Below are positions 2,624 to 62,497 of a DNA stretch of 64,000 nt, piece by piece. Source of the DNA: an uncultured delta proteobacterium (GTDB taxonomy: Bacteria; Desulfobacterota; Binatia; Bin18); the NCBI GenBank assembly GCA_963733195.1, contig CAVTCR010000063.1, positions 22,589-86,588 of the forward strand. The letters run 5' to 3'. The notes beneath the pieces are model-generated. The model was not told the origin of the DNA. It ran no database searches and worked only from the letters and a program-made list of their open reading frames with translations. Within the stretch, counting starts at the first letter, position 1. The number at the start of each line of letters is the position of its first letter. The position numbers were made by a program, and so were the translations under genes.

Positions 2624-4675
2624 ATGACCAAGCGAAAATATCGCGCTTTGATCTGGGTGGGAGCTATTTTTGGCGTGATTGCTGGCGCGACAGTGATCTT
2701 TTTTGCGACGTTGGATTGGAACAAGGCCAAGGGGTATATTTCAGCCGGCGTTAGCAAGGCCACGGGACGTCAGCTGAAGATCAACGGGGATCTCAACGTA
2801 GAGCTCGGTTGGATCTCCAAAGTGCGTGCTAGCCAGATACAATTCGAGAACGCACGCTGGAGCACGCACCCCCAGATGGTCGAAGTTGGCCTCGTCGACG
2901 TGGAGGTCGATCTCTGGCAATTGTTCAAGTGGCGGGTTGTCCTTCCTACAGTCACTATTTCTCAAGCCAAAGTAATTCTCGAAAAAAATGCTGCGGGCGA
3001 GGCAAACTGGGAGTTTCGTGCGGCTTCCGCGGTGACAGGCCCAATCCCGGAGAAGCGTACCGAGTTTCCGGTCATCGAAAAACTCATAGTCAAGGACGGG
3101 ACATTCCTGTTTGCCAATCAGGAAACTAAAACTCAGCTTGAATTGAAGCTCACTCAGGCGGAAGCGACGGGCTTCTTGGAGACACCGGTCAAGCTCAAGG
3201 CAGAGGGCACGTATCAGAAACAGCCGCTGACGTTGTCGTTGGAGGGAGGTTCATATCACAACTTGAGGAGCGCGACGGAGCCGTACCCTCTCGATATCAA
3301 ACTCGGCGTCGGAAAAGTCAAAGCCAACATCAAGGGGCATCTGGCCGAGCCGTTGGAGATGAAAGGAGAAGACGTCACGCTGGATATTCAAGGAGACGAT
3401 ATGGCGAATCTCTTCCCGCTCATCCGACTCGTCTTTCCCTCGACGCCCCCATACAAACTTAAAGGCCGGCTGAAACATGAGGCGCAGGTCTGGTCACTCT
3501 CAAATTTCTCTGGACGCGTCGGTGATAGCGATTTATCCGGGACCCTGCGGGTTGACACGGGACCGAAACGGCCCGTCATGAAGGCCGATCTCGTCTCTAC
3601 CTTACTCGACTTCGACGACTTAGCGGGGTTTATCGGGGCGACGCCGAAAACAACACCAGGGGAGACCACTTCTGAGGAGCAAAAAAAACGCGCCGCTGTC
3701 GAAAAGAAAGACGACCGAATATTTCCCGATCAACCCTATAATCTAGAGCGATTGAGAGCGATGGACGCAGATGTGCAGTTGCGCGCCAAGCAGATTCTCG
3801 CGCCCAATCTTCCCATAGACACACTCGTCGCGAAGTTAAGCTTAAACGACGGCGTTTTGAAATTCGAGCCAGCGACATTCGGGGTTGCCAACGGCCGCAT
3901 CGAACTCTACAGCACGTTTGATGGAGCGAAACGACCCTCCAAGGTCAATATCGATGCTCGGCTCATGCAGCTGGACCTGAAGCGACTCCTCGGCAAGAGT
4001 ACCTTCGCGCAAAATAGCCTCGGCCCTATTGAAGGGCGAATCAACATAGCGGGAACCGGCGAGTCGTTTCGCGAACTCATGGCGACTGCCTCCGGTAATA
4101 CCTTCGTGGTGATGGCCGGCGGGGAAGTCAGCGGGCTGCTCGTTGAGCTGGCCGGGCTGGACGTCGCTGAAACCCTTGGGGTGCTCGTCCAGGGCGACAA
4201 CCCCATCCCCATCCGCTGTGCGGTGATAGATCTTCACGGACAAGACGGACAGATGGACGTCCAAACGCTAGTGTTAGATACCACCGATACAGTCATTTTT
4301 GGTGAGGGGAAAATCGACCTCCGAGACGAACAGCTTGACATCGTCTTGACTCCCGTTCCGAAAGATTTCAGTCCGCTGAGCCTTCGTTCATTTATTCGAG
4401 TGGGGGGAAGCTTCAAGAAGGTCTCGGTATTTCCCGATCCGCTCAAGACCGGGACCAAATCGCTGCTTGCTAAGATTGCCAACGTCTTCATGGTGCTCGT
4501 TTCCGCTGTTGTCCAGCCCAGGGATCTATGGTTCGGCCAGGACATGGACTGCGATGCCCTGATCGCTGGTCTCCAGAAGAAGGATCCGCATGGAGTCGTC
4601 CTCAAAGATGTGCAGAAACCAGGCGGGTCTCAAACAGTTCCAGGAAAAAGAAGGGCGGTGATAACGACACGTTAG
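2624..4675 (+). CDS. AsmA family outer-membrane assembly protein
   Basis: N-terminal TM anchor (KYRALIWVGAIFGVIAGATVIFFATLDWNKAK) followed by a long beta-rich periplasmic region typical of AsmA. The likely start is the ATG at 2624, not the track start at 2357. Confidence 0.8.
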   Translation: MTKRKYRALIWVGAIFGVIAGATVIFFATLDWNKAKGYISAGVSKATGRQLKINGDLNVELGWISKVRASQIQFENARWSTHPQMVEVGLVDVEVDLWQLFKWRVVLPTVTISQAKVILEKNAAGEANWEFRAASAVTGPIPEKRTEFPVIEKLIVKDGTFLFANQETKTQLELKLTQAEATGFLETPVKLKAEGTYQKQPLTLSLEGGSYHNLRSATEPYPLDIKLGVGKVKANIKGHLAEPLEMKGEDVTLDIQGDDMANLFPLIRLVFPSTPPYKLKGRLKHEAQVWSLSNFSGRVGDSDLSGTLRVDTGPKRPVMKADLVSTLLDFDDLAGFIGATPKTTPGETTSEEQKKRAAVEKKDDRIFPDQPYNLERLRAMDADVQLRAKQILAPNLPIDTLVAKLSLNDGVLKFEPATFGVANGRIELYSTFDGAKRPSKVNIDARLMQLDLKRLLGKSTFAQNSLGPIEGRINIAGTGESFRELMATASGNTFVVMAGGEVSGLLVELAGLDVAETLGVLVQGDNPIPIRCAVIDLHGQDGQMDVQTLVLDTTDTVIFGEGKIDLRDEQLDIVLTPVPKDFSPLSLRSFIRVGGSFKKVSVFPDPLKTGTKSLLAKIANVFMVLVSAVVQPRDLWFGQDMDCDALIAGLQKKDPHGVVLKDVQKPGGSQTVPGKRRAVITTR

Positions 4676-6146: not shown

Positions 6147-6821
6147 TCAGAATAACTCTTCTGTCTCATTCGTAGTCATGCCCATCCATACCGCCCATGA
6201 AAGTTCGGCGACGGTAACGAAGCCATGATAATAACCTCTCACCGATGGCGCGCTGCCCGTTGGTCTTGGGGTGGCCGATGCGAGGGGATAGCGATGACCA
6301 AGGCCGACTATCGGCTGCATCTACGGCTGGCCGACCCATGACAATCTCACGCTCATTGGTGCGAACTGGGCGAGCTGAGAACTCTACCGCCGGTCCACGC
6401 CGACATTGGAGGCAACTTTACGAGCTCAAGGTACCTAGACGAGAGGAAGCACGCTGCAGAAAACACCCTCCCCTGCAGCACCACGACAGGAGAGCGTCCT
6501 CATCAAGGACGCGAACAGATACCCCAAGCACTCGCCACTCACGGCTTGGGCTCTGCCTCCTGCTCGTGGTCTACGATCGTCCGCTGGCAATCTCGCTCGA
6601 CTAACTTTTCCGGCTGCGTCGACTGCTCCAAGCATCGAGGCAACCGAGCGATCGGGGTCTTGGCTGACATCGGCGCCCACCTTGTCCGCGATCTGCTTGA
6701 GCATCGTCGGCATTCGTGTCCGCATGCGTGAGCAGAGTGACCTGCAAATCAACTGATTGCGGTGCAGGTGTCGGGGCAGGCTTGGCCTCCAGCGCGGAAC
6801 TGGGGGTAGCTGAGCGGGGCG

Positions 6822-7074: not shown

Positions 7075-7857
7075 TTACCCCCCGGCAGAGCGCCGGGGCT
7101 GCCAATGCGCTGCCTGGTGGGCGGCTACATAGTCCGACCGCGTGAACAGCTTGATCAAGACCATACCCGTGATGAACCCGCCTACGTGTGCCCAGAACGC
7201 CACGCCCCCGCTCGACTTGTCCCCACCCGCTAGCAGGCCGCTGACGACCTGGATCCCCATCCAGTAGAGGAGCATCGTCCACGCGGGCAGCGCCACGGAG
7301 GTGAGCAGCAAGCCCAGGGGCACCATCGTGAACACTCGGACCCGCGGATAGAGGATAAGGTAGGCCCCCATCACTCCACTAATTGCCCCTGAGGCCCCCA
7401 CCATCGGCACGCCCGACGCCGGGCTGGTCAGGACCTGCAACAGTGCCGCCGCTAGCCCGCACAGCAAGTAAAACAGAACGAACTGCGGCCGCCCCATCGC
7501 GTCTTCGACATTGTTGCCGAAGAGCCACAGAAACCACATATTGCCGAGTAAATGTAACCAGGACCCGTGCAAGAACATGGAGGTGAAGAGGTGAGAGACC
7601 TGCCGCCCCGGGTCGGTGACGCACACCAAGCCCTCGCCCATGGGAAAGCGGGTTCCAGGCGGGAGCGCGCCGGTGAGTTCTCCAGGAATAAGCCCCAGAT
7701 TGCAGACCGTCTCTGCCAGCGACAACGACGCACCAGCCCCTTGCAAGAACAGCCACGCCAGGACATTCGCCGTTATGAGGCTGAGGGTGACGTAAGGCGG
7801 CCGCTGGGTCACGTTCTCATCACGGTACGGAAACATGGTTCTTTCCCCAATCTTCAT
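7075..7857 (-). CDS. Rhomboid family intramembrane serine protease
   Basis: Contains HGSWLHLLGNMWFLWLFG and the GASGAISGVMGAY (GxSG) motif, with multiple TM helices. Confidence 0.9.
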   Translation of the reverse strand: MKIGERTMFPYRDENVTQRPPYVTLSLITANVLAWLFLQGAGASLSLAETVCNLGLIPGELTGALPPGTRFPMGEGLVCVTDPGRQVSHLFTSMFLHGSWLHLLGNMWFLWLFGNNVEDAMGRPQFVLFYLLCGLAAALLQVLTSPASGVPMVGASGAISGVMGAYLILYPRVRVFTMVPLGLLLTSVALPAWTMLLYWMGIQVVSGLLAGGDKSSGGVAFWAHVGGFITGMVLIKLFTRSDYVAAHQAAHWQPRRSAGG

Positions 7858-8551
7858 GCCTCACAGGGAGTCTATTAAGTGCATCGCGGTAAAACTGCCA
7901 TTGAGGAATAAAGCTGTCCATCAACGTGGCGAAGCGGCTATTATGTGTAGGCTCTAACAGGTGGACCATCTCATGCACGACGACGTACTCCAGACATTCT
8001 AGCGGTTTCTTGGCTAGTTCCGTGTTGAGCCGAATGCTCTTGGCATTGGGATTACAGCTTCCCCATTTGGTTTTCATCCGTTGCACAAAGAACCGCGCTA
8101 CGTTCACCCCCATGAGCGGCTCCCATTTGGCGATTAGGGCGGGGACGGCCTGCTTAAGCTGGGCGCGATACCATTCTTCGATAACGGCCTGCTTCTTTTC
8201 CTCGCTCGTACCCGGACGGACCCGCAAGTGCATTGTGTTGTGCTTGAGTTCCACTGCAGGTGCCTCGTCGCTTTCGAATACCTTGAGCAAGTAGCGTTTT
8301 CCCCAGACGTAGTGGCTTTCACGGTCGAGATACTCGCGCGGCGTTTCGCGTTCCTGTTCTTGCAGTTTCTTCTGCTGTTGCTTAATCCAGCCGAGTTTGG
8401 AAATGGCAAAGACACGAATAGTGTCAAGATTCATTCGAAGAGGTGCAGAGATGCGCACTTTGCCAGCAGGCGGGTACACGCTCAAGTGCAGGTTCTTGAT
8501 ATCCTTCTTCACCACATCCACCGCAATCTCACCCAGCTCAATCTGCATCAC
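7820..8551 (-). CDS. M48/YgjP-like (DUF45) metal-dependent hydrolase
   Basis: Contains WGSCNPNAKSIRLN...YVVVHEMVHLLEPTHNSRF. It starts 2 nt after the hsdR stop, a common type I R-M partner arrangement. Its 3' end overlaps the rhomboid start. Confidence 0.85.
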   Translation of the reverse strand: MMQIELGEIAVDVVKKDIKNLHLSVYPPAGKVRISAPLRMNLDTIRVFAISKLGWIKQQQKKLQEQERETPREYLDRESHYVWGKRYLLKVFESDEAPAVELKHNTMHLRVRPGTSEEKKQAVIEEWYRAQLKQAVPALIAKWEPLMGVNVARFFVQRMKTKWGSCNPNAKSIRLNTELAKKPLECLEYVVVHEMVHLLEPTHNSRFATLMDSFIPQWQFYRDALNRLPVRHEDWGKNHVSVP

Positions 8552-8553
8552 TG

Positions 8554-11500
8554 TCAGTATTCCTTCTGCTGTTTGATGATCAGGAAAATACGCTCCACCT
8601 CGGCCACGTCCTGCAAGATGTTATACAAGGCTTGCTTAATCACCCGTTCACGCGGTTCAATGCCGCGCCAGCCGTCAGGTCGGACGCGTTTGACAGTTTC
8701 ATCGATCTTGATGGCCAGTGCAAGCACATCCTCTTGTGTTGTCTCCTCGTGAATAGCAGGTGTTTCATCTACACCGCTCGTGCGTCCAGCACTTGCTTGA
8801 GGTTGTTATACAAGGCACGTCTGCCTGGCGTGTTCAGTTGTTCCGGCGTCTCCTCGGCCTTGCCAGCTTCTACTTGCTTGGCTAGCTCGGCGATCCGTTT
8901 GAGGTATTGTTCGTACTCCAGCGCCTTGGCTTTCCGGGCAGCGATGATCTCATCCAGCAGGGCGGACATTTTCTCGTAGTAGGCTGGGTCGTTGAGATGT
9001 TCCTTGATGATCTTGCTGCGGACGTTGTTCTCAATGGTTTCAGCCACTGCTTCCCTGTTCGCTCTCAGTCTACTTGGCAGGGAGTTGATGGCATTGGTGA
9101 TGCCAGTGTTCACAATCAGTTCCAGCAACGACATCTTGTCGAAGGGCGAGATGGTGCGCGGCTCTGCGGCTTCGATATACGTGTCGATGAGATGCCGCAT
9201 ATCTGCCTCGTAGGCTTTCAGGTCGAGCTTTTCGTTGGCAGCATTGCGGATGATGTCGCGGAGATCGAGGTACTCTTTAAGCTTTTGCTTGATGTAACGA
9301 ACGTCGGCCTCGCTGTAGCCAGCGGCGTCCAGTTCGTCGGCAATGTTGGCGTAGGCACGCACCAATGCGACGGTTGCCTTGTAGAGCGCGGCACGTTGTG
9401 GCTCGCGTGCCTTCAGGTCTTCCGGGAGTTCGGTATTACCACAGAAGTAATGAATATACTCTAGCTCGCCCTTGGGCGGTTCCACAGGCTCGCAGAGCAG
9501 CGCCAGGGCTTCCAGCGCGTTGTCGAGTCGCTCGCGACCTTTGGCAAGGCGATTGTTCATCAGGACTTCGGGATCGGCCCCGCCCGCACTGTGATCCAGC
9601 TCGGAGGTGTAGACCTGAAGGGCACCGGTGCCTTCCTCATTGACCAGTTTCTTGAACAGGTCCTTGTAATCCACGATGTAGCCGAATTCTTTATCCTCCC
9701 CGTCCAGCCGATTGGTGCGACAGATCGCCTGGAACAAACCAGTGATCCTGCATACTCTTGTCAATGTAGAGGTAGGTACAGCTGGGCGCGTCAAAGCCGG
9801 TGAGCAGCTTGTCTACGACGATGAGGAGCTTCATGTTGGCCGGTTCTTTCTTGAACAGCTCCTTAGCCTTTTCCTCGTAGGTTTCGGTCTTCGTCATGCC
9901 GGGCTTGGCGTCGATGTTCTTCAGCAGTTCGGTGTAGGTGCTGTAAATAAACTCTTTGTCCGTCTCAGTGTTCGCGCCGGTGTCTTCGGTGGTGATGTCA
10001 CGCGTCTGCGGATTGTACGAGGTGACGACCGCGCAGCGGTCCCTGAAGACCGTCTTCTGGAAGAGCGTGTAGTACTTACAGGCTTCGTAGATACTCGACG
10101 CTACCAGCATGGCGGTGCCGCGGTTGTCGCTGAGGCGCGGCTTGACGCTGAAGTCGAAGACGATGTCGCTTACCACCCGTTCCATACGCGAGCGCGAACT
10201 GAGCACCTTCTGCATCGTGCCCCACTGCTTTTTCAGTTCGTCTTTCTGCCAGTCGTTGAGCCCTTTGGTCTTGGCCTCAAACCAGGCGTCAATCTTGCTC
10301 TGCGAGCCGAGATGCTGGTCAATATCCCGCGCCTCATAGACCAGATCGAGCACCACCTCGTCTTCTACTGCTTCGCTGAACTTGTAGGTGTGGATGTACC
10401 CGCCGAAGACTTCCAGGCTGGTCTGCTTGTCCTTCTTGAGCAGCGGCGTGCCGGTGAAGCCGATGAAGACGGCATTAGGCATGATGGCCTTCATCACGCG
10501 GTGTAGCTTGCCGCTCTGGGTGCGATGGCATTCGTCGACGAAGACAAAAATCTCGCCTACTGTCTGGCTCGGCTGGGCTTGCAGTTCCTTGATGAACTGC
10601 TCGAAGTTGTCCACGTCCTTCTTGCCGAACTTATGCACCAGGGAACAGAGCAGGCGCGGCGTGGCCTGCCCCAACTGGGTCATCAGCTCGCGCCCGCTTC
10701 TGGTCCGCTTGATCGTCTCGCCTGTCTCGGTGAACACGTCTTCAATCTGTTTGTCCAATTCGTCACGATCGGTGACGATTGCTACACGAGCGTTGGGATT
10801 GTTTTCCAGAATCCATTTGGCCAGCAGCACCATGACGATGCTTTTGCCGCTGCCTTGCGTATGCCAGATGATGCCGCTCTTGCGTTTGCGCACATGCTGC
10901 TGGGCGGCTTTGACGCCGAAATACTGGTGCACGCGCGGCAGCTTTTTCATCCCGCCATCAAACAGCACGAAGTCGTGCATCAGCTCGATCAGCCGCGCTT
11001 TGTTGCACATCTTGAGCAGATACTTGTCGAGCTTGAAGCGACTGTTGTCTTCTTCGTCCTCTTTCCACTTGAGGAAGTACTTCTCTTCGGTGCCAATGGT
11101 GCCGTATTGCAGACCTTCGGAGTCGTTGCCCGCGAAGATGAACTGCACGGTGCTAAAGAACCATGCGTTGAACTCGGGTTGCTGGTTGGAAATGTTCTGG
11201 CGGATGCCGTCGCCAATCGTAATGCTGCTGTTCTTGAGTTCCAGCACGCCTACGGCGATACCATTCACATACAGCACGATGTCAGGCCGCCGTTCGTGAT
11301 TGCCGCGCAGTGTGACTTCTTCAGCGATGGCGAAGTCGTTCTTTTTCGGCTCCTTCCAGTTGATGAGATGGACGGTTTCGGTGACTTTGCCTGCTTCGAT
11401 CTTCACCTGGCACGCCATAGCGCAGCAGGTTGTACACGGCCTGATTGTTGCCGTACAGGCCGCGATTGTGATTGTCTGCCTCGGTGCGGAGTTTGTAGAG

Positions 11501-11688
11501 GGCGCTGCTGATCTGTGCTGGGGTGTATCCACACTTTGTGAGGTAGGTCGTGAGCAACTCTTCCTCAATGTTGCTGTTGCCGTCACGGTCGCGTCCAATC
11601 GCCGAGGTAGCGATAGCCGAGTTCATCGCGGAACAGGGCGATGACGCGGTTCTGCGTGGCGCGTTCAGGTTGGCCGATGTTACTGCAT
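8554..11688 (-). pseudogene. hsdR: Type I restriction enzyme R subunit, broken into 5 or more reading frames
   Basis: Pieces are [47 protein letters not shown]...LLRYGV, QVKIEAGK...helicase motifs...YIDKSMQDH, GLFQAICRTNRLDGEDKEFGYIV...ALYNNL, and LALAIKIDETVKRVRPDGWRG...IIKQQKEY*. Single-nt frame changes lie near 11685, 11590, 11410, 9743 and 8770-8800. Confidence 0.85.
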
Positions 11689-11699
11689 GATGGTCGCCT

Positions 11700-13035
11700 T
11701 TTACTTGCCAGTGGCCACCTTTGGCGGGGCCGATGCGTTGCAAGACCCCGTCAGACTTGAGTTTGGCAATCTGCTTCTCTACTCCACGGGTAGACAGTCC
11801 AAGCTTCTCCGCGAGTTCAGGAATGGTGATACGAGGATTCTCGCGAACGTGACGTATGATTTTCCCCGAACTTTTCCCCGAACTTTTCCCGAACTATCAC
11901 CGAATTCGTTCCGGGTAATTTTCTGGGTAGTGTCCACTCGCGTTGGAAACACCACCCACAGTCCCCCATGTTCAAAGCGGAACTCCGGCGGGGACGCACC
12001 TTCCACCCTGCAGGCATTCACAATATGCTCGATCCCGCGTCCCCATAATTCGATCATCCCCGCGCGGAAGAACGCATTTGCCACATCCGGGTTATACGGT
12101 TTGGACGAATGTTTTCCTGTGAGCGTTTCCACTGTCCATCCTTCGTGGAGTTCACCGTCGTTCCAGAGCATGATCTTGTCTTCATATACACTGATCTGAA
12201 TGGGTGCACCGCTGCTGTAATCCTTGTGAGCGACGGCGTTCAGTATCGCCTCGCGCAACGCTTCCTCCGGCACAGGGTACGTCTCCACGCGTTGTAGTCC
12301 TTCGTAGGAAATCATCGCCTTCAGATACTTTGCTAGCAAGATTTCCATTGTCTGATTCACCTGCGTGAAGAGATCGCCGTGAATTTCATCGTGGTAGAGC
12401 AAATCGGCGTTCGTACGGAAATAGCCGATTTTCACATACGCCCCGGTGAAAAATCGCTCCGGGTCTGGGTGAAACAACAACACCGCCGCCCGCTTCAGAT
12501 ATGTGCCATCCATCAGGTGCAGCTTGTCAATCAGAACGGCATCTGTCTCTTCCAGAAGCTCGGCTGACAAGCGCTTGCTACGCGTAGCGCGTTTGCGGAA
12601 ATACGCCAGCGCCCGCTGATCCAAGTCTGCCAGCGAGACATACGGTACGGGCGCATCATCCCAATGCCGCCCCTGTTTGCGCATCAGAAAACGGTGAAGC
12701 GCCGCGCCCTTCAACTCCTGCTTGGTGCTGCCACTGCGGTAATGGTATTCGCCTTTGTAACTGATTGGGCTGGGGTACGGTTCCACCACGATTTCCAGCC
12801 AATCCTTGCCCCGTTCGGTGTGCAGATTCACCTCGACCATGATACCGAGAATGTCGCGCACCTGGTTCGGAATGTCCCCCAACAACTTCGCCGCGTTGTC
12901 TACACCAACAACCTCGCCCCGGTCATTCTTGCCGATCATCAGCGTACCGCCCTGGGCATTGGCGAAGCCGCAAACCCACTTCAGGTATTCATCTCGCCAG
13001 TGCTGTTTCCATTCGATGTGCTGATGCTCCTTCAT
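11700..13035 (-). pseudogene. AlbA_2/Schlafen-like ATPase with C-terminal wHTH (RecG-like 'putative DNA-binding' family), C-terminus frameshifted
   Basis: MKEHQHIEWKQHWRDEYLKWVCGFANAQGGTLMIGKND... is intact up to GDSSGK. The wHTH tail ([54 protein letters not shown]) is in another frame. No stop separates that frame from hsdR, so the 3' limit is approximate. Confidence 0.75.
11859..11896. repeat. 12-nt tandem repeat (TTTTCCCCGAAC x3) whose third copy (first in gene order) has C3 instead of C4
   Basis: Read from the sequence as gattttccccgaacttttccccgaacttttcccgaac. Restoring one C/G puts SSGK-SSGK-SSGK and the wHTH domain back in frame. Confidence 0.8.
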
Positions 13036-13040
13036 AATAG

Positions 13041-13097
13041 TGGAGAATGGAGAGTTGAAAATTGAGAATTGAAAATGGAGAGTTGAGAATGGAGAAT
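13041..13097. repeat. Heptamer tandem array, 8 units (TGGAGAA TGGAGAG TTGAAAA TTGAGAA TTGAAAA TGGAGAG TTGAGAA TGGAGAA)
   Basis: Read from the sequence. It fills the gap between the four-helix-bundle gene stop and the AlbA_2 gene start. Confidence 0.9.
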
Positions 13098-13459
13098 TAC
13101 GAAGTCTGCTTTGATCCTTTGGATGTTTTGACAATTGAGACCAGCAGCTTGACAAGTTCTTCACTATCAGTGCGGATGGAGGCGAAGCTCTGATTGGCGA
13201 TGTATTCGGATTGATGAAGCAACTCCAGCCAGTACAGTGTCTCGTTAGCTTCTTTGAGAGCGATAGTCATCTTGTGAATAAAGTCCGCTTTGCTTTCTGC
13301 ATGCTCTGCTTCCCGTACCAGCGCACCAATGGCCGTGCCACTGCGCAGTACCTGGTTCGACAGAACAAATTCTTTCTTCTCACTTTGCAAGTGTCTGGCC
13401 AGCTTCACCACCCGCAACGCAAAGGCAAATGACTTATCCCTAATGATGTTCTCCCTCAT
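13097..13459 (-). CDS. Four-helix-bundle protein (TIGR02436 / PF05635, 23S rRNA IVS protein / Avd-like)
   Basis: MRENIIRDKSFAFALRVVKLARHLQSEKKEFVLSNQVLRSGTAIGALVREAEHAESKADFIHKMTIALKEANETLYWLELL matches the family signature as I recall it. The ORF is intact. Confidence 0.9.
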   Translation of the reverse strand: MRENIIRDKSFAFALRVVKLARHLQSEKKEFVLSNQVLRSGTAIGALVREAEHAESKADFIHKMTIALKEANETLYWLELLHQSEYIANQSFASIRTDSEELVKLLVSIVKTSKGSKQTS

Positions 13460-13572
13460 TCTTAATTCCCATTCTTACTCTTCCATTTTTAATTCTCCAT
13501 TTTCCATTTTCACTTCTCCATCTCAACTTTCCACTTCTTCATTCTCAATTCTCCATTCTCAATTTTCCATTA
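13457..13572. repeat. Heptamer tandem array, ~16 units, complementary type (ATTCTCA ATTCTCC ATTTTCC ...)
   Basis: Read from the sequence. It is inverted relative to 13041..13097 and fills the gap between the hsdS stop and the four-helix-bundle gene start. Confidence 0.9.
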
Positions 13573-15265
13573 AACAAGCCTGACTTGTCCGGTGAGTAAC
13601 ACGTGCATCATGCCCTGCTTGAGCTGGCGGGCTTTGGCGAGCTTGGCTTCCAGCGCGTCGATCTCGGCGTCCATGTCGCTCAAGACCTCGGCAATGGCTT
13701 CTTGTTCGGAACGCTAGGCGGGTGAAGGAATTACAAATCTTGCGAGATCTTGCGCCCGAGATTAGGCTGAGCTGCACCACCAGACCATTTTCTATCATCC
13801 GTGCACACAGGTTAGAATTGAAGTAATAACTCAGATAGTCAGTACGGAGACTGGCTGACTTAGGGCGAACAATTACCAGAGAGCTCGCGATTGCACCTTC
13901 GCCGAAATCTGGACCAACGATTCCGAATTTGCCCAACGAACCGCGCAAACAGAACAGTATGTCCCCAGGCTTAAACTTCCCGCCGCCAAGGCGGTCATAG
14001 CTCTCTCTAGTGATGTAGTCTAGTTCACTGCGATTGATATGACCTTCTGCAACGTGGCCTGCGTTAACGAAAGGGACTCCACTACGTGCGAATGACACTG
14101 ATGATGGGTAATTTTTTCCTCGATCCCCATTTTCGAAGACGCAAGTCTCGCTAAGCGTGACATCGATCCTCTGGTACCCCGCCCGGAAGAGAACGTATGC
14201 AAACCGATCTCCTAGAGATAATGCCAGCCATGCATCGGCTCTGGAAGTGCGTGCATTGACGATCGACGTAACCGACGCGGCTAAATACGATATCACCTTC
14301 TTCAAGTGCATATACGCTGAGCCGCTTTCATCCGCATCTGATTCCGTAGGAAGATTAGAATGTACAACTCCGCGTTCACCTAAATGCTCCACAGTGATGA
14401 TCGGAGTGCCGTCCACTAAGCATAGTCGCGTTCTATGTAACGCCGAGCCAAAACGGACCCGTTTCCACATCTGTGATCTTGCCAATCGTTGCTACATTGC
14501 CAATCCTCGGTATCTCTCCTAACTTCGCTGTTTTGTCGCCCAGTGGTTCCACTGAACTCCGATAGCCGTTTCTTCCCGGTGAGCAATTCCTGCATGGCGC
14601 CTTGTTTGAGGTGGCGTTTTTTGGCGATGAGTTGCTCAAGGGATTCAATGAGGGCATCCGCATCGCTCAAGGCTTCGGCAATGGCTTCTTGTTCGGCTTT
14701 GGTGGCGGAAGAGGAATCGGGACTGTCTCGAACTTATCTTTTGGAAGATGTGCGTATGCTTGTCTGCGTGACAAATTCAGCAGAATGCCTTACGATGCCA
14801 GACTGCTGAACGAGTATCCAAGCATCAGGAAATCATGTAGCCACTGCTTTACATAAGCGCTGCATTAGCGCCATTCTGATCAGTAAGCATGTCTATCATC
14901 TGGACTAGCCATATACCGTGCCAGCACGCTCCAACTTTCTGCCTGCCATCGCAACAAGCGACGATCGCCACTTCGCAAGACTGAATATCGTCTGAAGATC
15001 AGCTTCTGGCGTCATCTGATCACGCCAATATCGCTCAGGTCAATACGTCCCCAATTGACATGGCTCTGATCGCCTGAGTAAAGGCTTCGTAATACCAACG
15101 TTATTTTCACGGAATCGAGCATCTTCCTCAACTGATTTAGAACTCGTCGCCGACAGTCGAGACCTCCCAATCCTCCGGAATCACCCCCACCTCGGTCTGC
15201 TTGTAACCCGGAGGAACTAATGGAGAATTGAGAGTTGAGAATTGAGAATTGTTTTCGTTCTTCAT
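13570..15265 (-). pseudogene. hsdS: Type I R-M specificity subunit, heavily disrupted
   Basis: N-terminus is MKNENNSQFSTLNSPLVPPGYKQTEVGVIPEDWEVSTVGDEF*. TRD1 (about 14700-15215) is spread over all three frames with several stops. The central helix is EQEAIAEALSDADALIESLEQLIAKKRHLKQGAMQELLTGKKRL. The distal helix SEQEAIAEVLSDMDAEIDALEAKLAKARQLKQGMMHVLLTGQVRLV* lies out of frame behind a TAG. Confidence 0.75.
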
Positions 15266-15286
15266 TTTCCATTCTCCATTCTCAAT
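15221..15286. repeat. Inverted pair of heptamer arrays with a 12-nt spacer (no cargo)
   Basis: TGGAGAA TTGAGAG TTGAGAA TTGAGAA TTG (15221..15251), spacer ttttcgttcttc, then ATTTTCC ATTCTCC ATTCTCA ATT (15263..15286). It spans the hsdM stop and the hsdS start. Confidence 0.9.
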
Positions 15287-17693
15287 TAAGCGAAAATCCC
15301 ATTTTCGCGAGATGGCGGTTCACTTTCTGTTCCAGCTCGGCCACGCGGCTCGTCTGCTGCGGCAGCGGGGTTTCGTAGCGTTCGGCCAGTTCCTTCACGC
15401 GCTGGGTCAGGGCCTGGCTGATACGGTCCATCTCGCCGTGGATGCGTGCATCGAGTACGGCCAGCCATTTGTCATCCACGACCAACGTCTTGATCTCGGC
15501 CTCGGTGAGTTTGGGATATTGGGCATAGGCTTTCGCATCGAGTGCGGCCTCGGCGTCTTTGAGGCGCTTCTTGAGTTCGGACTCCTGGTCACTGAGCGTT
15601 AGCCAGGCATTTAAGAACCTCGGCTTCCTCTTTGGTCTCCTCATCTTTGGAGAACAGCCCTTTGATCTCCTTTAGGCGTGCGGCGATATTAGCCTTGTTC
15701 ACCTTGTCCAACGCGGAGAACGCACCTTCCTCACCACCGTGTTCTTCTTCCATCTCAGTCAACTGAGCGGTGACGCTTTCCAGCTCGGCCTCCAGCTTCG
15801 TGATGGCTTCTTGTTCTTTGGCAAAGTAGCGAGCGACGATGAGCGGCTTCGGCACGAGATCGCACGCCCAGCCCTTGTCCTTCTCTTTGCCTTTCTTGTC
15901 TTTCTCGATGATACGATAGGTCTCAGCCTTCCACCCATCAGTGGCGATCAGATAGCAGTCGTCCTGCATCGTCTCGGCCCAGTAATCCATCAGGTGCTGA
16001 TAGACATCGTATTCATCGATCAGCGGCTTGCCGCTGTAGTGCGCGAGCAGGTTTTCGGAAAGGCCTTTGATGATGTGTTTGGGGTGACACTCAACCGTTA
16101 GTCCCTTGAGTGCCTTGCGTGCGTCTACGCCAATCGGCAAACAAGGCGTTCATACTATCGGTGAACGTCACAAACTCCGCGATGCTCGTAGATGGTTTGT
16201 TTTAGTTGAGAGTGGAGAATGGATAATTGAGAATAGTGGGCGCGGAGCGGCTGGAAGAGTGCGGATTTGAGTCCAGGGAGAACGGACCAATATTTTTCGA
16301 GTGCATCGATGTCGCGGTTAGGGATGCCGCCGCGCAGGTGGCCTTCGATGTCTTGAATGTCTTCGGCCTCCTGACTGTCGATGTAACGCGGAATGTTGAG
16401 GTTGTATTCGTTCTTCTCGATCTCTGCGAACGGGACCATGCGCGCATATTTGGGAATCTCTACCTGTTTGGTGAAGACATCCACAATCTTGTGAATGTCC
16501 CTCGCACGCAACCGGTTCTTGTTACCGTCCTTCATGTAGCCCGCGCTGGCGTCAATCATAAAAATGCCACGGCGCGTGTGGGCGTCTTCTTTGTCGATGA
16601 CGATGATACAGGCCGGAATGCCAGTGCCGTAAAACAGGTTCGCGGGCAGGCCAATGATGCCCTTGATGTAGCCCTTGCGGATCAAGTTGCGGCGGATGTC
16701 GGCTTCGGCATTGCCACGGAACAACACCCCATGCGGCAGAATGCATGCACCTTTGCCGTGGCTCTTGAGCGAGCGCACGATGTGCAGCAGATAGGCGTAA
16801 TCGCCCTGTTTGCCAGGCGGCACACCGAAGGACTTGAAACGCTCGTGCGGATCGTTGAGCGGATCGACACCGGTGCTCCAGCGCTTATCGCTGAACGGCG
16901 GATTCGCGACTACGTAATCAAAGGTCTTGAGGATGTCGCCATCTTTGAACTTGGGGTCAGCCAGCGAGTTGCCTTGCACGATCAACGCCGTCGGGTTGTT
17001 GTGCAGCACCATATTCATCCGCGCCAGACCGGACGTCGCCGCGTCTTTATCCTGGCCGTACAGCGTGACCTGCGCGTGGGCTTCATCGGCGACTTTCAAC
17101 AACAGCGAGCCGGAACCGCAGGTCGGGTCATAGACGGTGGTATCGTTCGTCGTCTTGGCATCGCGGATGCCGATGATCTGCGCAATGATGCGGCTGACCT
17201 CGGCAGGCGTGTAGAACTGCCCCTTGCTCTTGCCGCTATCCACGGCGAAGTGCTGCATCAGATATTCATAGGCATCGCCGAGAATGTCATCACCGTCTGC
17301 GCGGTTCTTGCTGAAATCGAGCCGCTTATCTTCAAAGATGGCGATGAGGTCTGTTAGTCGCTCCACCATCTCCTTGCCGCTGCCGAGCTTGGTGGCGTCG
17401 TTGAAGTCCGGCATGTCGGACAGCTTGTTGGCATTGGCCAGCGGCGCGATGATCTTCTTGTTGATCTGGTCACCGATGTCAGGTTTGCCCTTGAGCGCGA
17501 CCATGTCCTTGAAGCTGGCGCCCTCGGGAATGGTGATCGGCGCGAAAGGCACGCCGGCATATTTGTCGCTGACATATTTGATGAACAACAGGACCAGCAC
17601 GTAGTCCTTGTATTGGCTGGCATCCATGCCGCCGCGCAGCGCATCGCAGCTCGACCACAGGGACGAGTAGAGTTCCGATTTCTTCAGGGCCAT
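15282..17693 (-). pseudogene. hsdM: Type I R-M methyltransferase subunit with long C-terminal extension, split into 4 frame segments (3 track ORFs plus a short bridging segment)
   Basis: The N6-MTase core is intact (DPTCGSGSLL, NPPF). Then EHAEFVTFTDSMNALFADW, VDARKALKGLTVECHPKH...EEAEVL and NAWLTLSDQESELKK...RHLAKMGFSLN* lie in different frames. Shifts are near 16182, 16130 and 15610 (an extra A in an A-run). Confidence 0.85.
16205..16236. repeat. Short heptamer array inside the hsdM reading frame (GTTGAGA GTGGAGA ATGGATA ATTGAGA)
   Basis: Encodes ...YSQLSILHSQLKQ... on the minus strand and is of the same unit type as the arrays at 13041 and 15221. Confidence 0.6.
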
Positions 17694-18329
17694 AGTGTCG
17701 TTAGATTCCGTTTCTTTGCGTAGTGATGAAGAGTCGCAAAATGCCTGAGATACCTACCAGCCCACGACAAGAATGTCATCGTAAGGTAGTACTTTGGGAT
17801 CAAAGACTCACTGGCAATATTATTGAATTGTCGCTGTGGATCGTGCTCTGGTAAGGCCACCAACATTTCCCCCTTACCAACGATGCTACTGCTTTCGCTC
17901 GGCAAGAAGCAAGGAAAAGACAGCCGTTTTTCTGCGAGGAGAAGAAATAACCGTATGAAATACGTCTGAGAGACGTTTGAGAAAGATCACAGGAGAACCG
18001 CGTCTCTACGGAGATTCAAGTAGACGAGGTTGGCTTCGAGCGTCAAGGAGGATCAGTTCCGGGGTACGCCCCTCGCGTAGCTCTTCGATCTGCTGGCCAA
18101 GCATGGCTGAGGGATGTTCTTGGACAAGAGAAAGGAACGCTTGCGCGTTACATAGCTCAAAGACGAGCGCTTGTAAGGGGCGATATTCATTCTCGCGATC
18201 TTTCTTATTAATTCGGAGAGTGTCTTGATGCCCCATCGGGCCGCGCTTCCCACAGAATCGGAAATCGCAGAAGGTTTTTCATTTTGGTTCTTGATCGATA
18301 AGGAAACGAAGGGCGAGAAGAAACACAAG

Positions 18330-18402
<73 letters not shown>

Positions 18403-27279: not shown

Positions 27280-27314
27280 CCTCATTGCTCGATACTCATT
27301 ACTCATTACTGTTT
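27280..27314. repeat. Heptamer array (CCTCATT GCTCGAT ACTCATT ACTCATT ACTGTTT)
   Basis: Read from the sequence, immediately upstream of the SDR gene RBS. Confidence 0.75.
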
Positions 27315-31101: not shown

Positions 31102-31192
31102 CTGGGGGTCGGGGTCAGGGGTGGGGATCGGTTCTTGACTTTTGATTGCTTTTGATCTTGGACTAGACTCTAGACTTTGGACTCTGGACTGG
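31102..31192. repeat. 13-unit heptamer array inside the TPR gene (…GACTTTT GATTGCT TTTGATC TTGGACT AGACTCT AGACTTT GGACTCT GGACTGG)
   Basis: Read from the sequence. It encodes the low-complexity linker between ELYRLKGELTL and EAEACFLKAIEIARKQQAKS. Confidence 0.75.
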
Positions 31193-33935: not shown

Positions 33936-34244
33936 ACCACTTGTGAGATGGCGATGATAATTTCTAATCCCGCTCGCACGGCACGTTGCGCATCGTCTTC
34001 ATGGGCGACTGGATAACCGAAGTAGACCAGCAACCCATCCCCGAGATGCTGGGCAATGTGCCCTTCGTACCGCCGGATCACCTCCGTGCAGGTCTCTTGG
34101 TAGGCGCGCACCACTTCGCGCAATTCTTCTGGGTCAAGTTGCGCGGACAGTGCAGTCGAGCCCACGAAATCACAGAACATCACGGTCAATTGCCGCCGCT
34201 CCGCGGCGTTCAGTTGAGAACTGACAACTGTTGGGGACTGGGGG

Positions 34245-34279
34245 GAACTTGGAACCTGGAACTCGGAACTTGAAACTGG
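34245..34279. repeat. Heptamer array in the N-terminal linker of the cyclase gene (GAACTTG GAACCTG GAACTCG GAACTTG AAACTGG)
   Basis: Read from the sequence. It is translated in frame as ...[11 protein letters not shown].... Confidence 0.75.
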
Positions 34280-41918: not shown

Positions 41919-43157
41919 ACAATGGCTGGACCGGTGGGCAGTATAGCTTGTTCCGCGTGCTGTTTGGGGCATATCTCTTCGTCCATTTTGCGCACCTCAT
42001 CCCATGGGGAAAGGAGCTATTTTCCAACCAGGGGATGCTCCCACAAGGAAGTGTCAGCCCGGTGTTGTGGTTATTTCCGAATATTCTTGCCTTGTGGGAT
42101 ACGTCGGCGTTTGTGACTACACTATTGGTGATTGCTACTGGTGTCAGCCTTTTGTTCGCAATTGGCTACTACGATCGCATGGCGGCGGTGGTGCTTTGGT
42201 ACATCTGGGCATGTCTGTTCGGGCGTAATCCACTCATTGCTAATCCCGGCTTACCGTATGTTGGTTGGCTGCTGCTTGCGCATGCCTGCTTGCCCGTTGC
42301 GCCGTATGGTTCGTGGGCGGCGCGGAATCGTTCAGATCCCGCTGGTTCGTGGCAGATGCCGCCATCGATTTATGCGGTTGCGTGGATTCTGATGGCAATT
42401 GGCTACACATATAGCGGTCTGTGGAAGCTAATGAGTCCGTCGTGGTTAGACGGTACTGCGCTCATCCGAGTCATGGAGAATCCCCTGGCCCGCTCAGGTC
42501 CGATTCGTGACTTGTTGTTATCGTTGCCGGAATGGATCTTACAGTCTCAAGACATGGGGCGCACTTACCTTAGAGATCGCGTTTGCTCCGCTCATCCTAA
42601 TTCCGTGGCTACGTCCGTGGATTTGGGGTCTCATGCTGATGATGCACTTTGCCCTGATGGCAGTTGTAGACTTTGCTGACCTGAGCCTTGGCATGGTGAT
42701 GTTGCATCTGTTTACGTTCAACCCGGCATGGATACGCCCACAGGCAGCGACAGCGCCCGACCTGGTTTTCTACGATGGCCACTGCGGGCTGTGTCATCGC
42801 GCAGTTCGGTTTTTATTGGCAGAAGACCCCACCAACGCGACCTTCCATTTTGCACCGCTTGAGAGTGAAACCTTTCGGACTGCAATCGGTGAAGATCAAC
42901 GAGCAACCTTACCTGACAGTATCATCGTGCAGACAGCCAGTGGTATTGTCCTCATGCGTTCGGCTGCGGTGTTGTATGCGCTTAAGCGATTGGGTGGCAT
43001 ATGGCGCTTGGTCGGGACCATTGCAGCGTTAGTCCCGGCTGGCGTCCGTGACTGGGCGTATGATGGGATTGCGCATATTCGCTACCGTCTCTTTCGTACT
43101 CCAGCGGAAGTATGCCCGCTTGTCCCTGCTGACCTGCGGGCTAGATTCAAAATGTGA
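41909..43157 (+). pseudogene. HTTM (vitamin-K carboxylase-like) domain fused to a DCC1-like thiol-disulfide oxidoreductase, one frameshift
   Basis: HTTM-like multi-TM N-terminal part (YSLFRVLFGAYLFVHF...). The frame changes near 42540. The C-terminal part is LVFYDGHCGLCHRAVRFLLAEDP (DCC/DUF393 motif). Confidence 0.7.
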
Positions 43158-43203
43158 CATTCGTCTACAACAAGTGAGGAACAAGTACGGAGAAAGAAGT
43201 CGT

Positions 43204-43611
43204 ATGGAAGAATCGTCGTCGACGCCAAACTTTCAGCCGCTCCGCATTTTGTGGACGGCTTTTCTAGGAGCGGTATGTGTCTATATTGTGATTGCTTATG
43301 CCCTTGGCCAAGGGCGGCTGGCCTCATCAGACCTCACTTTCATGGTGCCGATTTTGGCTGGAGCAGCAGTAGGGATGACACTATTAGCTTTTTCCGGCGG
43401 ACGACTGTTTGCGAAGATGGAGTATCAGGCATACTGCATTGTTCGTTGGGCGATGATTGAAAGTGTGGGGATCTTTGGGTTGCTACTGGCATTGCTTGGG
43501 GCTTCACTGACCACTGCTGTTGCTTTCTGTGGCTGGGCAGTGCTTTCACTTTTTCGTTTACGCCCGACGCCCGAGGATTATCAGCAATTCCTGCGTCTAC
43601 GAGGGCCTTAA
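43204..43611 (+). CDS. Hypothetical 4-TM membrane protein
   Basis: GGAGAAAG RBS before the ATG at 43204 and four hydrophobic segments. No family recognised. Confidence 0.5.
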   Translation: MEESSSTPNFQPLRILWTAFLGAVCVYIVIAYALGQGRLASSDLTFMVPILAGAAVGMTLLAFSGGRLFAKMEYQAYCIVRWAMIESVGIFGLLLALLGASLTTAVAFCGWAVLSLFRLRPTPEDYQQFLRLRGP

Positions 43612-43661: not shown

Positions 43662-43738
43662 CACTTTGCATTTCCCATTTTCCATTCTTAACTCTCCATT
43701 TTCCATTCTTCCTTCTTCCTTCTTCCCCTCCCCCTCCT
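43662..43738. repeat. 11-unit heptamer array (CATTTCC CATTTTC CATTCTT AACTCTC CATTTTC CATTCTT CCTTCTT ...)
   Basis: Read from the sequence. Intergenic, upstream of the hydrolase gene. Confidence 0.85.
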
Positions 43739-45912: not shown

Positions 45913-46607
<695 letters not shown>

Positions 46608-47034: not shown

Positions 47035-47731
47035 ATGCGAAAAAATTATGTGTTTTGGCTTCTCTGGGGAGCTGCACTACTGGGAATTTCGGGCTGCGGT
47101 ATGTCTGAAACTAAACGAAGGGGGACTATCGTCGGGGCAGCACTCGGCGCAACAGCACTCGGCGTCGGCGGAGTTGTGATAGCTGACGAATGTCGGCGAT
47201 GGGAATCGTCAAAGTGAAAGGTGGTATGGGGCTGGGATCGGGATCCTGGCCGGTGCAGTAATCGGAGGCGCGCTGGGGTATTGGCTGACGGATGAACCTG
47301 AGGTTTCACCGCCGCCGCCGCCACCGCCGCCACCACCACCGCCGCCACCACCGCCACCGCCACCTGCAATTACCTCGGGAACCACAATCCGGTTGCGTGG
47401 GGTGAATTTTGACTACGATAAAGCAAACATCAAGGCGGATTCTGCCGCAGTGCTCGATGAGGCCGCCCGACTGCTGAATGACAATCCGGACGTGCAGGTG
47501 AGGATTGTCGGTCATACTGATTCCATAGGGTCCGATGAGTACAACCAACGCCTCTCGGAACGGCGAGCACAAGCAGTGAAAGCCTACTTGGTTTCCAAAG
47601 GGATCGCTGCGAGTCGCTTAACGACCGAAGGTCGAGGGGAACAGGAACCTATTGCCGACAACACGAGGAATGGCAGAGACAATCCTGAGGGCCGGGCGAT
47701 GAACCGCCGGGCTGACTTGAAGGTCGAATAA
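47035..47731 (+). pseudogene. OmpA-domain lipoprotein, copy 2, with the same split architecture
   Basis: MRKNYVFWLLWGAALLGISGC...GVGGVVIADE... stops at 47217. The OmpA frame (…WYGAGIGILAGAVIGGALGYWLTDEPEVS-P19-…RGVNFDYDK…) again opens after TGATAG without a start codon. Confidence 0.7.
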
Positions 47732-61882: not shown

Positions 61883-62497
61883 CTAATCGGTGACTTCTAA
61901 ACGTGACCCCATGAGTTCTTCCAGCAGGCTCTTAGCCTCTTGCAAATCTTTCGTATCAAACCCTTCGGTGAACCAGTTATAGATCTCAGATAACGTGGTG
62001 CGTGCTGCGTGGTGCTTGCCTTGTCGCTGCCACAGGCGGGCAAGGCTCACTGTCGCGCGCAACTCTAGCGACTTCGCTTGTTGTTGCGAGCAATCTCAAT
62101 GGCTTTGTGAAAACATGCTTCGGCTTCGGCTGCTGGGAGTTGGGAGTTGGGATTTAGGATTTGGAATTTTTGACTTTTGCGCTTTGCCTTTTGTCTTTTG
62201 ACTTTCCTGCTGAAGCGTCAGCTCGCCTTTCAGCCGATACAGCTCAGCCTCCCAGAAATGCTCCCCAGTTCTATCCACTGTAGCCAACGCCTCGGCCAGT
62301 GCAGTCAACCCTTCCTCTATCTGTCCGATTTCTCCGTACGTCTCTGCCAGGAGCGCGAGGAAGTATGACTGAAATAGCTCTGCTCCCATAGCTCGGCAGA
62401 GGGCAAGACCTTGGTGTATGCGTGCCAGCCCTTCTTTTTCCTTTCCTTGTCTGGCTAATGCCCAACCTCGTAGGACAGTCGCCCACGCCCGGCTCAT
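61883..62497 (-). pseudogene. 5'-truncated, frameshifted paralog of the TPR tail of the cyclase/AAA/TPR gene
   Basis: SRAWATVLRGWALARQGKEKEGLARIHQGL...EAELYRLKGELTLQQ, then [14 protein letters not shown], then [58 protein letters not shown], in three frames. Confidence 0.7.
62118..62208. repeat. 13-unit heptamer array (GCTGGGA GTTGGGA GTTGGGA TTTAGGA TTTGGAA TTTTTGA CTTTTGC GCTTTGC CTTTTGT CTTTTGA ...)
   Basis: Read from the sequence. It occupies the same position in the paralog as array 31102..31192 but has different unit sequences. Confidence 0.85.

Follow-up and report, generated by a model that had tools for sequence, protein, structure and literature searches.

The subject of this analysis is a small genetic element in a stretch of 64,000 nucleotides from an uncultured delta proteobacterium (contig CAVTCR010000063.1, positions 22,589 to 86,588), which is called the window below and is numbered from its first letter. 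Inside a type I restriction-modification (R-M) operon of the window, a gene for a four-helix-bundle protein has complementary arrays of 7-nt repeats on its two sides, one running up to the start codon and the other beginning at the stop codon. The same arrangement was found in loci from at least ten phyla, and the two arrays change their repeat unit together. We read it as a compact stem-loop cassette of the intervening-sequence type that is located at gene junctions of operons and acts at the RNA level, and we assign this reading a probability of about 50%. In the window, the cassette consists of the following parts:

13097..13459, minus strand: four-helix-bundle gene, 120 aa, PF05635/TIGR02436, close to PDB 2RLD, intact (family profiles, dN/dS)
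13460..13575, minus strand: 5′ arm of about 16 imperfect heptamers (UGGAGAA/UUGAGAA/UGGAAAA), rich in purines on the coding strand (Tandem Repeats Finder, pairing)
13040..13099, minus strand: 3′ arm of 8 heptamers (AUUCUCC/AUUCUCA/AUUUUCA), rich in pyrimidines on the coding strand (Tandem Repeats Finder, pairing)

Read in the operon direction (minus strand), the hsdS stop codon (TAA, 13574-13576) opens the purine-rich array, which ends at the ATG of the four-helix-bundle open reading frame (ORF). The pyrimidine-rich array follows from the TAA of this ORF and ends 5 nt short of the ATG of an AlbA_2 gene. Using Tandem Repeats Finder, the 3′ arm (13041-13097) was detected as 8.1 copies of period 7 with 76% matches. 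The 5′ arm (13457-13571) was detected as 8.3 copies of period 14, corresponding to about 16 heptamers, with 70% matches and a degenerate period of 7, 14 or 21. The two-unit pattern TKGAGAATKGAGAA, allowing up to two mismatches, occurs 31 times in the window, compared to 1.64 expected matches and a maximum of 7 in 100 shuffles, and 25 of these 31 matches fall within 13041-16233. Five of the six TGGAGAA-type arrays in the 64 kb are located no more than 3.2 kb from the four-helix-bundle gene.

The two flanks are inverted repeats of 30-57 nt with 70-87% complementarity. As an RNA duplex, positions 13040-13099 and 13489-13570 give 51 bp with a calculated energy of -58.5 kcal/mol, compared to -35.5 ± 4.2 kcal/mol with a base-shuffled 3′ arm, and the predicted fold of the whole 581-nt transcript joins both arrays. 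An initial annotation of this DNA had described the gene as the loop of a long imperfect inverted repeat between heptamer arrays, and the potential duplex agrees with that description. Terminal inverted repeats that can form a stem around the insert, here an S23p-family ORF, are also a defining trait of intervening sequences. In a search of 12900-15400 against Rfam 15 (E ≤ 1), neither the arrays nor the hairpin gave a match. Over the whole window a tRNA was the only Rfam match, and gathering as well as permissive thresholds gave none on the arrays.

The protein matches PF05635 with 92.2 bits (cut-off 33.8) over 105 of 106 model positions and TIGR02436 with 104.5 bits (cut-off 24). Its best structural match is PDB 2RLD, a solved, pentameric structure (E=3e-41). 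The label 'Avd-like' in the initial annotation holds at the level of the family, but 2RLD is closer than Avd and no reverse transcriptase is found nearby. Between the window gene and its relatives, dN/dS is 0.04-0.07, including the comparison with locus L001, whose R-M genes are likewise fragmented. Such values mean strong purifying selection, which implies that the protein is made and needed and is no passive loop filler. It had no match in PADLOC. Proteins of PF05635/TIGR02436 are among the commonest conserved bacterial proteins of unknown function. To our knowledge, the only described homes of this family are 23S rRNA intervening sequences and diversity-generating retroelements.

Close homologues of the protein (75-92% identical) are very numerous, and their contigs were read. 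A scan with one genome per species yielded 80 more loci (58-84% identity), cultured isolates included, from Nitrospira, Desulfobacteraceae, Chloroflexi, Acidobacteria, Cyanobacteria, many Bacteroidota, Chlorobi, Leptospiraceae, Planctomycetes, Omnitrophota and others. Overall, 175 loci were fetched (cited here by L numbers), and 84 non-redundant loci from at least ten phyla were used for the counts. An array lies within 120 nt upstream of the gene in 69 of these 84 loci, within 120 nt downstream in 68, and on both sides in 58. By comparison, arrays were found in only 35 of 1174 random 123-nt segments of the same loci (3%) and in about 10% of the flanks of other ORFs. The expectation of the initial annotation that other four-helix-bundle genes carry such flanks and that arbitrary genes do so less often was thereby borne out. 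Where a 5′ array is present, it reaches the start codon to within 3 nt in 40 of 69 loci and is purine-rich in 58; the 3′ array reaches the stop codon to within 3 nt in 40 of 68 loci and is pyrimidine-rich in 42.

The arrangement of a purine array running up to the ATG and a complementary array starting from the stop codon was observed in all three kinds of locus with close homologues: the operon type of the window (L001), an operon of 60% G+C from activated sludge (L002-L011), and a locus outside R-M operons, flanked by an amidohydrolase gene and a UbiD gene (L012-L015). Some loci from Chlorobi and Bacteroidota (L037, at 2-307, 1359-1700 and 3001-3351; L035; L051; L059) contain two or three four-helix-bundle genes a few kb apart, each with its own arrays. 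In a scan of 2.9 million viral contigs, only two distant homologues were found, one with arrays and one (45% identity) without.

The repeat unit generally reads T-K-R-N-N-A-A on the upstream side of the gene (coding strand), with the complement on the downstream side. TGGAGAA, TTGAGAA and TTGAAAG units are found in Nitrospira, proteobacteria and Chloroflexi, TGGATAA and TTGATAA units in cyanobacteria, and TGGTTAA and TTGTTAA units in many Bacteroidota. Prevotellaceae and Bacteroidaceae carry TTAAGAA units, and other groups carry TTGTGAA and TTGACAA. The two arms covary. The duplex energy per nucleotide is -0.73 for arms of the same locus, compared to -0.43 for arms combined across loci (p=2.7e-13, with the kinship of loci uncorrected). 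The variable dinucleotide is common to both arms in 21 of 37 loci, compared to 7.0 after permutation (maximum 17 in 10,000; kinship likewise uncorrected). Between the window and L002, L016 or L018, synonymous sites are saturated, yet the array type is kept on both sides in all of them. This indicates that the arrays are maintained, either by selection or by a continuing generative process.

The arrays also change in length. The near-identical loci L002 and L003 have four and seven downstream units, respectively, a difference of three units or 21 nt that keeps the reading frame, and array lengths differ between the window and L001. Arms of the ATTCTCC type contain no stop codon in any frame. 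The repeat tracts are imperfect. In L002 and L143 the pyrimidine arm separates the body of hsdR from a candidate start codon, and in the window and L001 it separates that of hsdS from one. In L002 and L143, this start codon is located 8-11 nt before the stop codon of the four-helix-bundle gene and is in frame, through the pyrimidine arm, with HsdR. Gene callers read the arrays as overlaps of hsdS and hsdR with the four-helix-bundle gene (L002, 4001-4004 and 4353-4363; L003; L096). These called overlaps hide the arrays in the annotation, and they suggest tight coupling.

A second, gene-less copy of the arrays is located at the hsdM/hsdS junction of the window, and array-type sequence also occurs inside hsdM:

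15258..15287, minus strand: 5′ purine-rich arm of the gene-less hairpin, starting at the hsdM stop codon, 4.3 copies (Tandem Repeats Finder)
15219..15251, minus strand: 3′ pyrimidine-rich arm of the gene-less hairpin, 4.7 copies (Tandem Repeats Finder)
16206..16233, minus strand: array-type sequence within hsdM, rich in pyrimidines on the coding strand

The two arms at 15219-15287 are oriented like those of the cassette, with a loop of about 9 nt between them. From an ATG at 15265, where the purine arm ends, an open frame continues across the pyrimidine arm to the conserved HsdS N-terminus (GYKQTEVG...), and the 15219..15251 arm thereby adds an in-frame N-terminal extension (MKNENNSQFSTLNSPLVPPGYKQTEVG...) to HsdS. 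L001 is arranged alike, with purine arm, loop, pyrimidine arm and the frame into HsdS but no gene at the same junction. The empty copy proposed in the initial annotation is thus found again in a relative, and similar copies occur elsewhere: many loci contain further hairpins without a gene, as well as solo arrays, in the same unit class, with 39 such arrays within a few kb of the four-helix-bundle gene, compared to 87 within 250 nt of it. Inside hsdM, the array codes for SQLSILHSQL in the window, L001, L002, L096 and L098, whereas about 45 other orthologues have VDLAVEKSAI at this position, an exchange of equal length over ten codons (30 nt). We considered this array as the cause of the hsdM frameshift and rejected it, since the array keeps the frame and the intact hsdM of L002 has it too. 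The hsdM of L017 carries a further pyrimidine-type array elsewhere in the gene (1276-1312).

Period-7 repeats of several kinds occur in the window. Apart from those in the R-M operon, the only array of the cassette's class is a solo pyrimidine-type array at 43665-43727 (TTTCCAT/TTCTCCA, followed by TTCCTTC units and a C-rich tract), between co-oriented ORFs (43048-43611, and an alpha/beta hydrolase gene from 43790). Heptamers of unrelated units lie inside a TPR-like ORF (GGGAGTT, then TTTTGAC, 62127-62205), inside a cyclase-domain ORF (GGAACTT, 34244-34277) and in intergenic DNA (CTCATTA, 27281-27310; CTAGACT, 31163-31190). Two tandem repeats of the CCGCCACCA type with 9/15-nt periods (46187-46249 and 47307-47364) lie 1.1 kb apart.

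The host operon in the window has the following genes besides the cassette:

15282..17693, minus strand: hsdM pseudogene, in three frames
13574..15265, minus strand: hsdS remnants, fragmented
11779..13035, minus strand: AlbA_2/HATPase_c_4 gene, intact, directly 3′ of the cassette (domain search)
8554..11672, minus strand: hsdR pseudogene, at least three frame changes
7820..8551, minus strand: YgjP-like metallopeptidase gene, the last gene of this operon type

Relative to the intact operon of L002, hsdM, hsdS and hsdR are each split over several frames, as the initial annotation had implied. All three are recognisable, although the window does not contain the intact set that defines a type I R-M operon. 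Genes elsewhere in the window are intact, so the frameshifts reflect a true set of pseudogenes and no assembly-wide error. Both inserted genes, the four-helix-bundle gene and the AlbA_2/HATPase_c_4 gene, are intact inside this frameshifted system (8554-17693); the earlier statement that the four-helix-bundle gene is the only undisrupted ORF between hsdM and hsdR was incorrect. An AlbA_2 gene directly 3′ of the cassette was also found in Nitrospira, Desulfobacteraceae and other loci. Near its 3′ end, the AlbA_2 gene of the window carries 3-4 copies of a 12-nt tandem repeat (TTTTCCCCGAAC, 11860-11904) coding for GKVRGKVRGK. A tRNA-Ala(CGC) gene (18329-18402) lies on the same strand about 640 nt past the hsdM start, and the R-M island may have entered at this tRNA gene.

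To follow the junction in related operons, the N-terminus of the L002 HsdR was searched in metagenomes, which gave 80 orthologous type I R-M operons (at least 78% identity, 685 kb). Only 3 of these 80 carry the four-helix-bundle gene. In the 685 kb, the detector found arrays only directly upstream of a four-helix-bundle gene, in L096 and L143; those of L130 are under the detector threshold and were seen by eye. Relatives with the gene at the same site have arrays as well, and with this the outcome of all three refutation tests named in the initial annotation spoke for its proposal. In most of the 80 operons hsdS and hsdR overlap by ATGA, which is the ancestral form of this junction. The nearest cassette-free relatives of L002 are L097 and L098 (93.5% and 91.5% nucleotide identity over the first 1200 nt of hsdR). 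They carry other small ORFs in the hsdS-hsdR interval, which shows this interval to be a general insertion hotspot. Across L097, L098, L130, L002 and L021, the inserts are the cassette, an AlbA_2 gene, a 276-294-aa ORF without Pfam match and other small ORFs, and the interval is a hotspot for such 'restriction-linked' inserts.

About 20 of the 84 loci lie in type I R-M operons, at three junctions (hsdM/hsdS, hsdS/hsdR and hsdR/ygjP). The remaining loci are found in unrelated surroundings, and some of them hold two or three copies in a span of 3.4 kb. The four-helix-bundle gene points the same way as its upstream neighbour in 70 of 78 loci and as its downstream neighbour in 67 of 79, counts that stand without a control set. 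Co-orientation of about 70% is usual in bacteria. The median gaps to the neighbours are about 40 nt, so that the arrays fill the intergenic space. The four-helix-bundle gene is consistently poorer in G+C than its flanks, and the two values rise and fall together across loci (mean 37.5% versus 45.0%, r=0.88; window 47.9% versus 53.6%).

Comparison with the nearest cassette-free operons (L097, L098, L138 and L122) gave no clean filled/empty junction and no target duplication, because other sequence in the interval of these operons prevents exact boundaries and target duplications from being defined. The alignment of orthologous intervals proposed in the initial annotation thus yielded presence/absence polymorphism but no exact junctions. 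In L001, the closest relative of the window (96% nucleotide identity in hsdR-ygjP), about 960 nt of the window sequence are missing; the deletion begins within the 3′ array and takes away the first 313 AlbA_2 codons. Position 6393/6396 of L001 corresponds to a jump in the window from 13060 to 12101, resuming at AlbA_2 codon 314. L016 has an internal AlbA_2 deletion from codon 57 to codon 317, ending near the end of the L001 deletion. No recombinase was found in or beside the cassette in the window and in the gene neighbourhoods of L001-L015. Mobility of the module, as initially proposed, is suggested by just three things: its presence in 3 of 80 orthologous operons, the several junction types and the one deletion end within an array.

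Taken together, the proposed cassette would be a PF05635 ORF bounded start-to-stop by complementary heptamer arrays, without a recombinase of its own. It would reside at junctions of co-directional operons, often of type I R-M systems, and be co-transcribed with them. In the operon transcript, the arrays are predicted to pair into a long imperfect stem around the ORF, which may serve as a substrate of RNase III. This stem might keep the GGAG-rich, ribosome-binding purine arm inaccessible until it is opened by ribosomes that come to the stop codon of the upstream gene, which falls in the first unit of the 5′ array. Such opening by upstream ribosomes could explain why an insert is tolerated between translationally coupled genes. 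The stop-free pyrimidine arm could be a translated leader of the next gene. The arrays would vary in length by slippage, act as hotspots of recombination and deletion, and persist as gene-less hairpins. We favour action at the RNA level because a Coxiella intervening sequence and the hmw1A leader of Haemophilus influenzae, discussed below, have the same ingredients. Pairing in vivo, cleavage, coupling and the way of spread are inferred here from sequence.

Several observations weigh against this reading. The fold of the whole transcript has a z-score of only -2.06 and that of the gene-less hairpin of -1.72, both modest values, and the stem is imperfect at 70-87% complementarity. Duplexes of the sense and antisense arms are equally stable (p=0.14), and a strand test of G-U versus A-C pairs was null; pairing could for this reason act in DNA instead of RNA. 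In L143 the two arms belong to different unit classes, and arm lengths are uncorrelated (rho 0.18, not significant). A conserved 23S motif was found in none of the 175 loci and none lies inside a 23S rRNA gene, which leaves family membership and architecture as the basis of the link to intervening sequences. An RNase III cut in the stem would moreover sever the next gene from a start codon in the pyrimidine arm.

The main rival is a module that works on DNA. The inverted arrays would form single-stranded DNA (ssDNA) hairpins or cruciforms, or provide portable homology, and would be sites of insertion, exchange and deletion for host recombination or an unlinked enzyme, with gene-less hairpins as landing pads or excision scars and RNA pairing as a by-product. 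Complementarity that is equal on both strands fits such a module, as do the presence and absence of the cassette among orthologous operons, the occupation of different junctions (hsdM/hsdS, hsdS/hsdR, hsdR/ygjP) and the number of gene-less hairpins and solo arrays that surround the genes at distances of a few kb. The end of the L001 deletion inside the 3′ array and the replacement of 30 nt of hsdM by array-type sequence of equal length also fit it. On the other hand, it would not require a fixed polarity relative to the coding strand or exact abutment to start and stop codons. The neighbourhoods contain no recombinase, the compared loci show no target duplication or clean pair of empty and filled alleles, and the 2.9 million viral contigs gave only two matches. 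We regard this explanation as possible, at odds of roughly three to one against. A bolder reading combines the four-helix-bundle proteins and the T-K-R-N-N-A-A arrays into a two-part repeat system similar to REPIN-RAYT. An Avd-like ring protein would bind array RNA or ssDNA and, with a host or unlinked polymerase or reverse transcriptase, spread the arrays by patch-wise conversion; the ten-codon hsdM exchange and the gene-less hairpins near these genes would be candidate examples of such conversion. If true, this system would supply both a cause for the intergenic heptamer excess of prokaryotes and a function for the ORFs of S23p intervening sequences, but at present we consider it improbable.

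It is also conceivable, though doubtful, that the arrays are expression signals only. The purine array would then be a portable promoter, ribosome-binding site and start, and the pyrimidine array a stop-free linker whose copy number, 7 not being a multiple of 3, switches the downstream gene, with complementarity being secondary. GGAG is located 8 nt before the ATG in TGGAGAA arrays, and units without GGAG dominate in Bacteroidota and cyanobacteria, which make little use of Shine-Dalgarno pairing. The pyrimidine arms are in frame with HsdS or HsdR, and L002 and L003 differ by 21 nt. Sigma-70-like matches of the form TTGAGA-N17-GAGAAT occur in the arrays, but they follow from the repeat period (23 = 3×7+2), are weak (9/12) and are found on both strands. 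In the window they are located at 13062-13097 (plus strand), 13526-13499 (minus strand) and 16206-16234 (plus strand), the flanking pair facing each other across the gene. Signals of this kind leave unexplained why the 3′ arm tracks the unit type of the 5′ arm across lineages and why both arms are kept in gene-less hairpins, and the imperfection of the arrays lowers slippage. Finally, a genome rich in heptamer repeats, like those with cyanobacterial short tandemly repeated repetitive (STRR) sequences or the TAACTGA repeats of Beggiatoaceae, might carry two such repeats beside the gene by chance. Arrays with unrelated units do occur in the window (27281, 31163, 34244, 62127-62205), and heptamers are the commonest intergenic tandem repeats in prokaryotes (10.1101/309039). 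Against this, the same flanks are found in about 80% of the 84 loci from many phyla, compared to 3% of controls, polarity is fixed, the arms covary and five of six TGGAGAA-type arrays are close to the gene. Chance flanking is extremely improbable, and it was excluded on the grounds of array enrichment over controls, arm covariation and the confinement of arrays to the neighbourhood of the gene in the 685 kb.

Among known systems, the closest are the 23S rRNA intervening sequences of Coxiella and Leptospira, which likewise hold a PF05635 ORF in the loop of a terminal inverted-repeat stem. In Coxiella burnetii, the S23p (PF05635) ORF lies in the loop of a 28-bp stem that is cut by RNase III, and 2-3 tandem GACAGAT heptamers, variable between strains, directly precede the ATG, with the 5′ cut at the first repeat (PMC4990558). 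The heptamers were treated as a local feature, and the sporadic distribution of the element suggests horizontal transfer (PMC4990558). Unlike these elements, the cassette is located between protein-coding genes of operons and is not inserted in a 23S rRNA helix (9, 25 or 45), so that it is no intervening sequence in the defined sense. Its arms are multi-unit heptamer arrays of 30-120 nt instead of a unique 28-bp stem. It is accompanied by gene-less hairpins and solo arrays. Its protein is subject to strong purifying selection, in contrast to the Coxiella ORF, which is reported to be decaying.

The leader of H. influenzae hmw1A contains ten ATCTTTC units as one arm of a long hairpin that is cut by RNase III, and hairpin, transcription and RNase III are all needed for the repeat number to change (PMC12721329). 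As proposed for the cassette, a transcribed 7-nt array is paired with a purine-rich partner; the repeat number of the hmw1A array varies and controls hmw1A expression. The hmw1A hairpin differs in that it encloses no gene, has repeats in one arm only, occurs at one locus of a single species and has no four-helix-bundle protein associated with it. In REPIN-RAYT systems, a tyrosine transposase gene lies between inverted short repeats that are also frequent without the gene in intergenic regions. The cassette resembles them as a single gene bracketed by inverted repeat copies that also occur without it. However, it encodes a 120-aa helical bundle without nuclease or transposase fold, has tandem heptamers instead of single palindromes, and can be present in several gene copies per locus. 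With only PF05635 and no Y1 (IS200/IS605-type) transposase between the repeats, it is not a REPIN-RAYT. Integron cassettes consist of a promoterless single ORF and an attC hairpin. They share with the present element a single ORF co-oriented with its neighbours and an imperfect inverted repeat, which here is split around the ORF and made of heptamer arrays, with no integrase or attI.

TAACTGA repeats are known from Beggiatoaceae, cyanobacteria and Bacteroidetes (PMC4679880). These and the STRR repeats resemble the cassette arrays in being of period 7, mostly intergenic, often ending at a start codon and patchy in the same phyla, but they are described as direct repeats without partner array or associated gene family, and their units differ. 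Avd has a homologous four-helix-bundle fold and belongs to the same family (PMC10053308). No reverse transcriptase was found among the window neighbours (hsdS, AlbA_2, hsdR, hsdM) or the called genes of L001-L015, and no template or variable repeats were noticed nearby, although no repeat search aimed at such a pair was made. With neither of these components observed, the cassette is not part of a diversity-generating retroelement. Full-text searches of the literature gave no four-helix-bundle gene flanked by inverted heptamer arrays apart from the Coxiella intervening sequence. The earlier statement that no cassette with heptamer ends had been described calls for a qualification in view of the variable tandem heptamers before the Coxiella S23p start codon (PMC4990558).

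The element looks like a widespread, undescribed, operon-dwelling form of the S23p intervening-sequence element outside rRNA, with heptamer arrays as both arms. Our data indicate that the members of a subfamily with 58-92% identity to the window protein are found outside rRNA, in a stereotyped cassette with covarying inverted heptamer arrays. Seen this way, the rRNA intervening sequences would become one special form of a far broader element. Annotation is affected as well, as gene callers extend neighbouring genes through stop-free pyrimidine arrays into false overlaps. With its stem, RNase III and translational coupling, the cassette provides a concrete, testable model. It also ties a defined protein family to the period-7 tandem repeats of prokaryotic intergenic regions, the excess of which had been stated to be unexplained (10.1101/309039).

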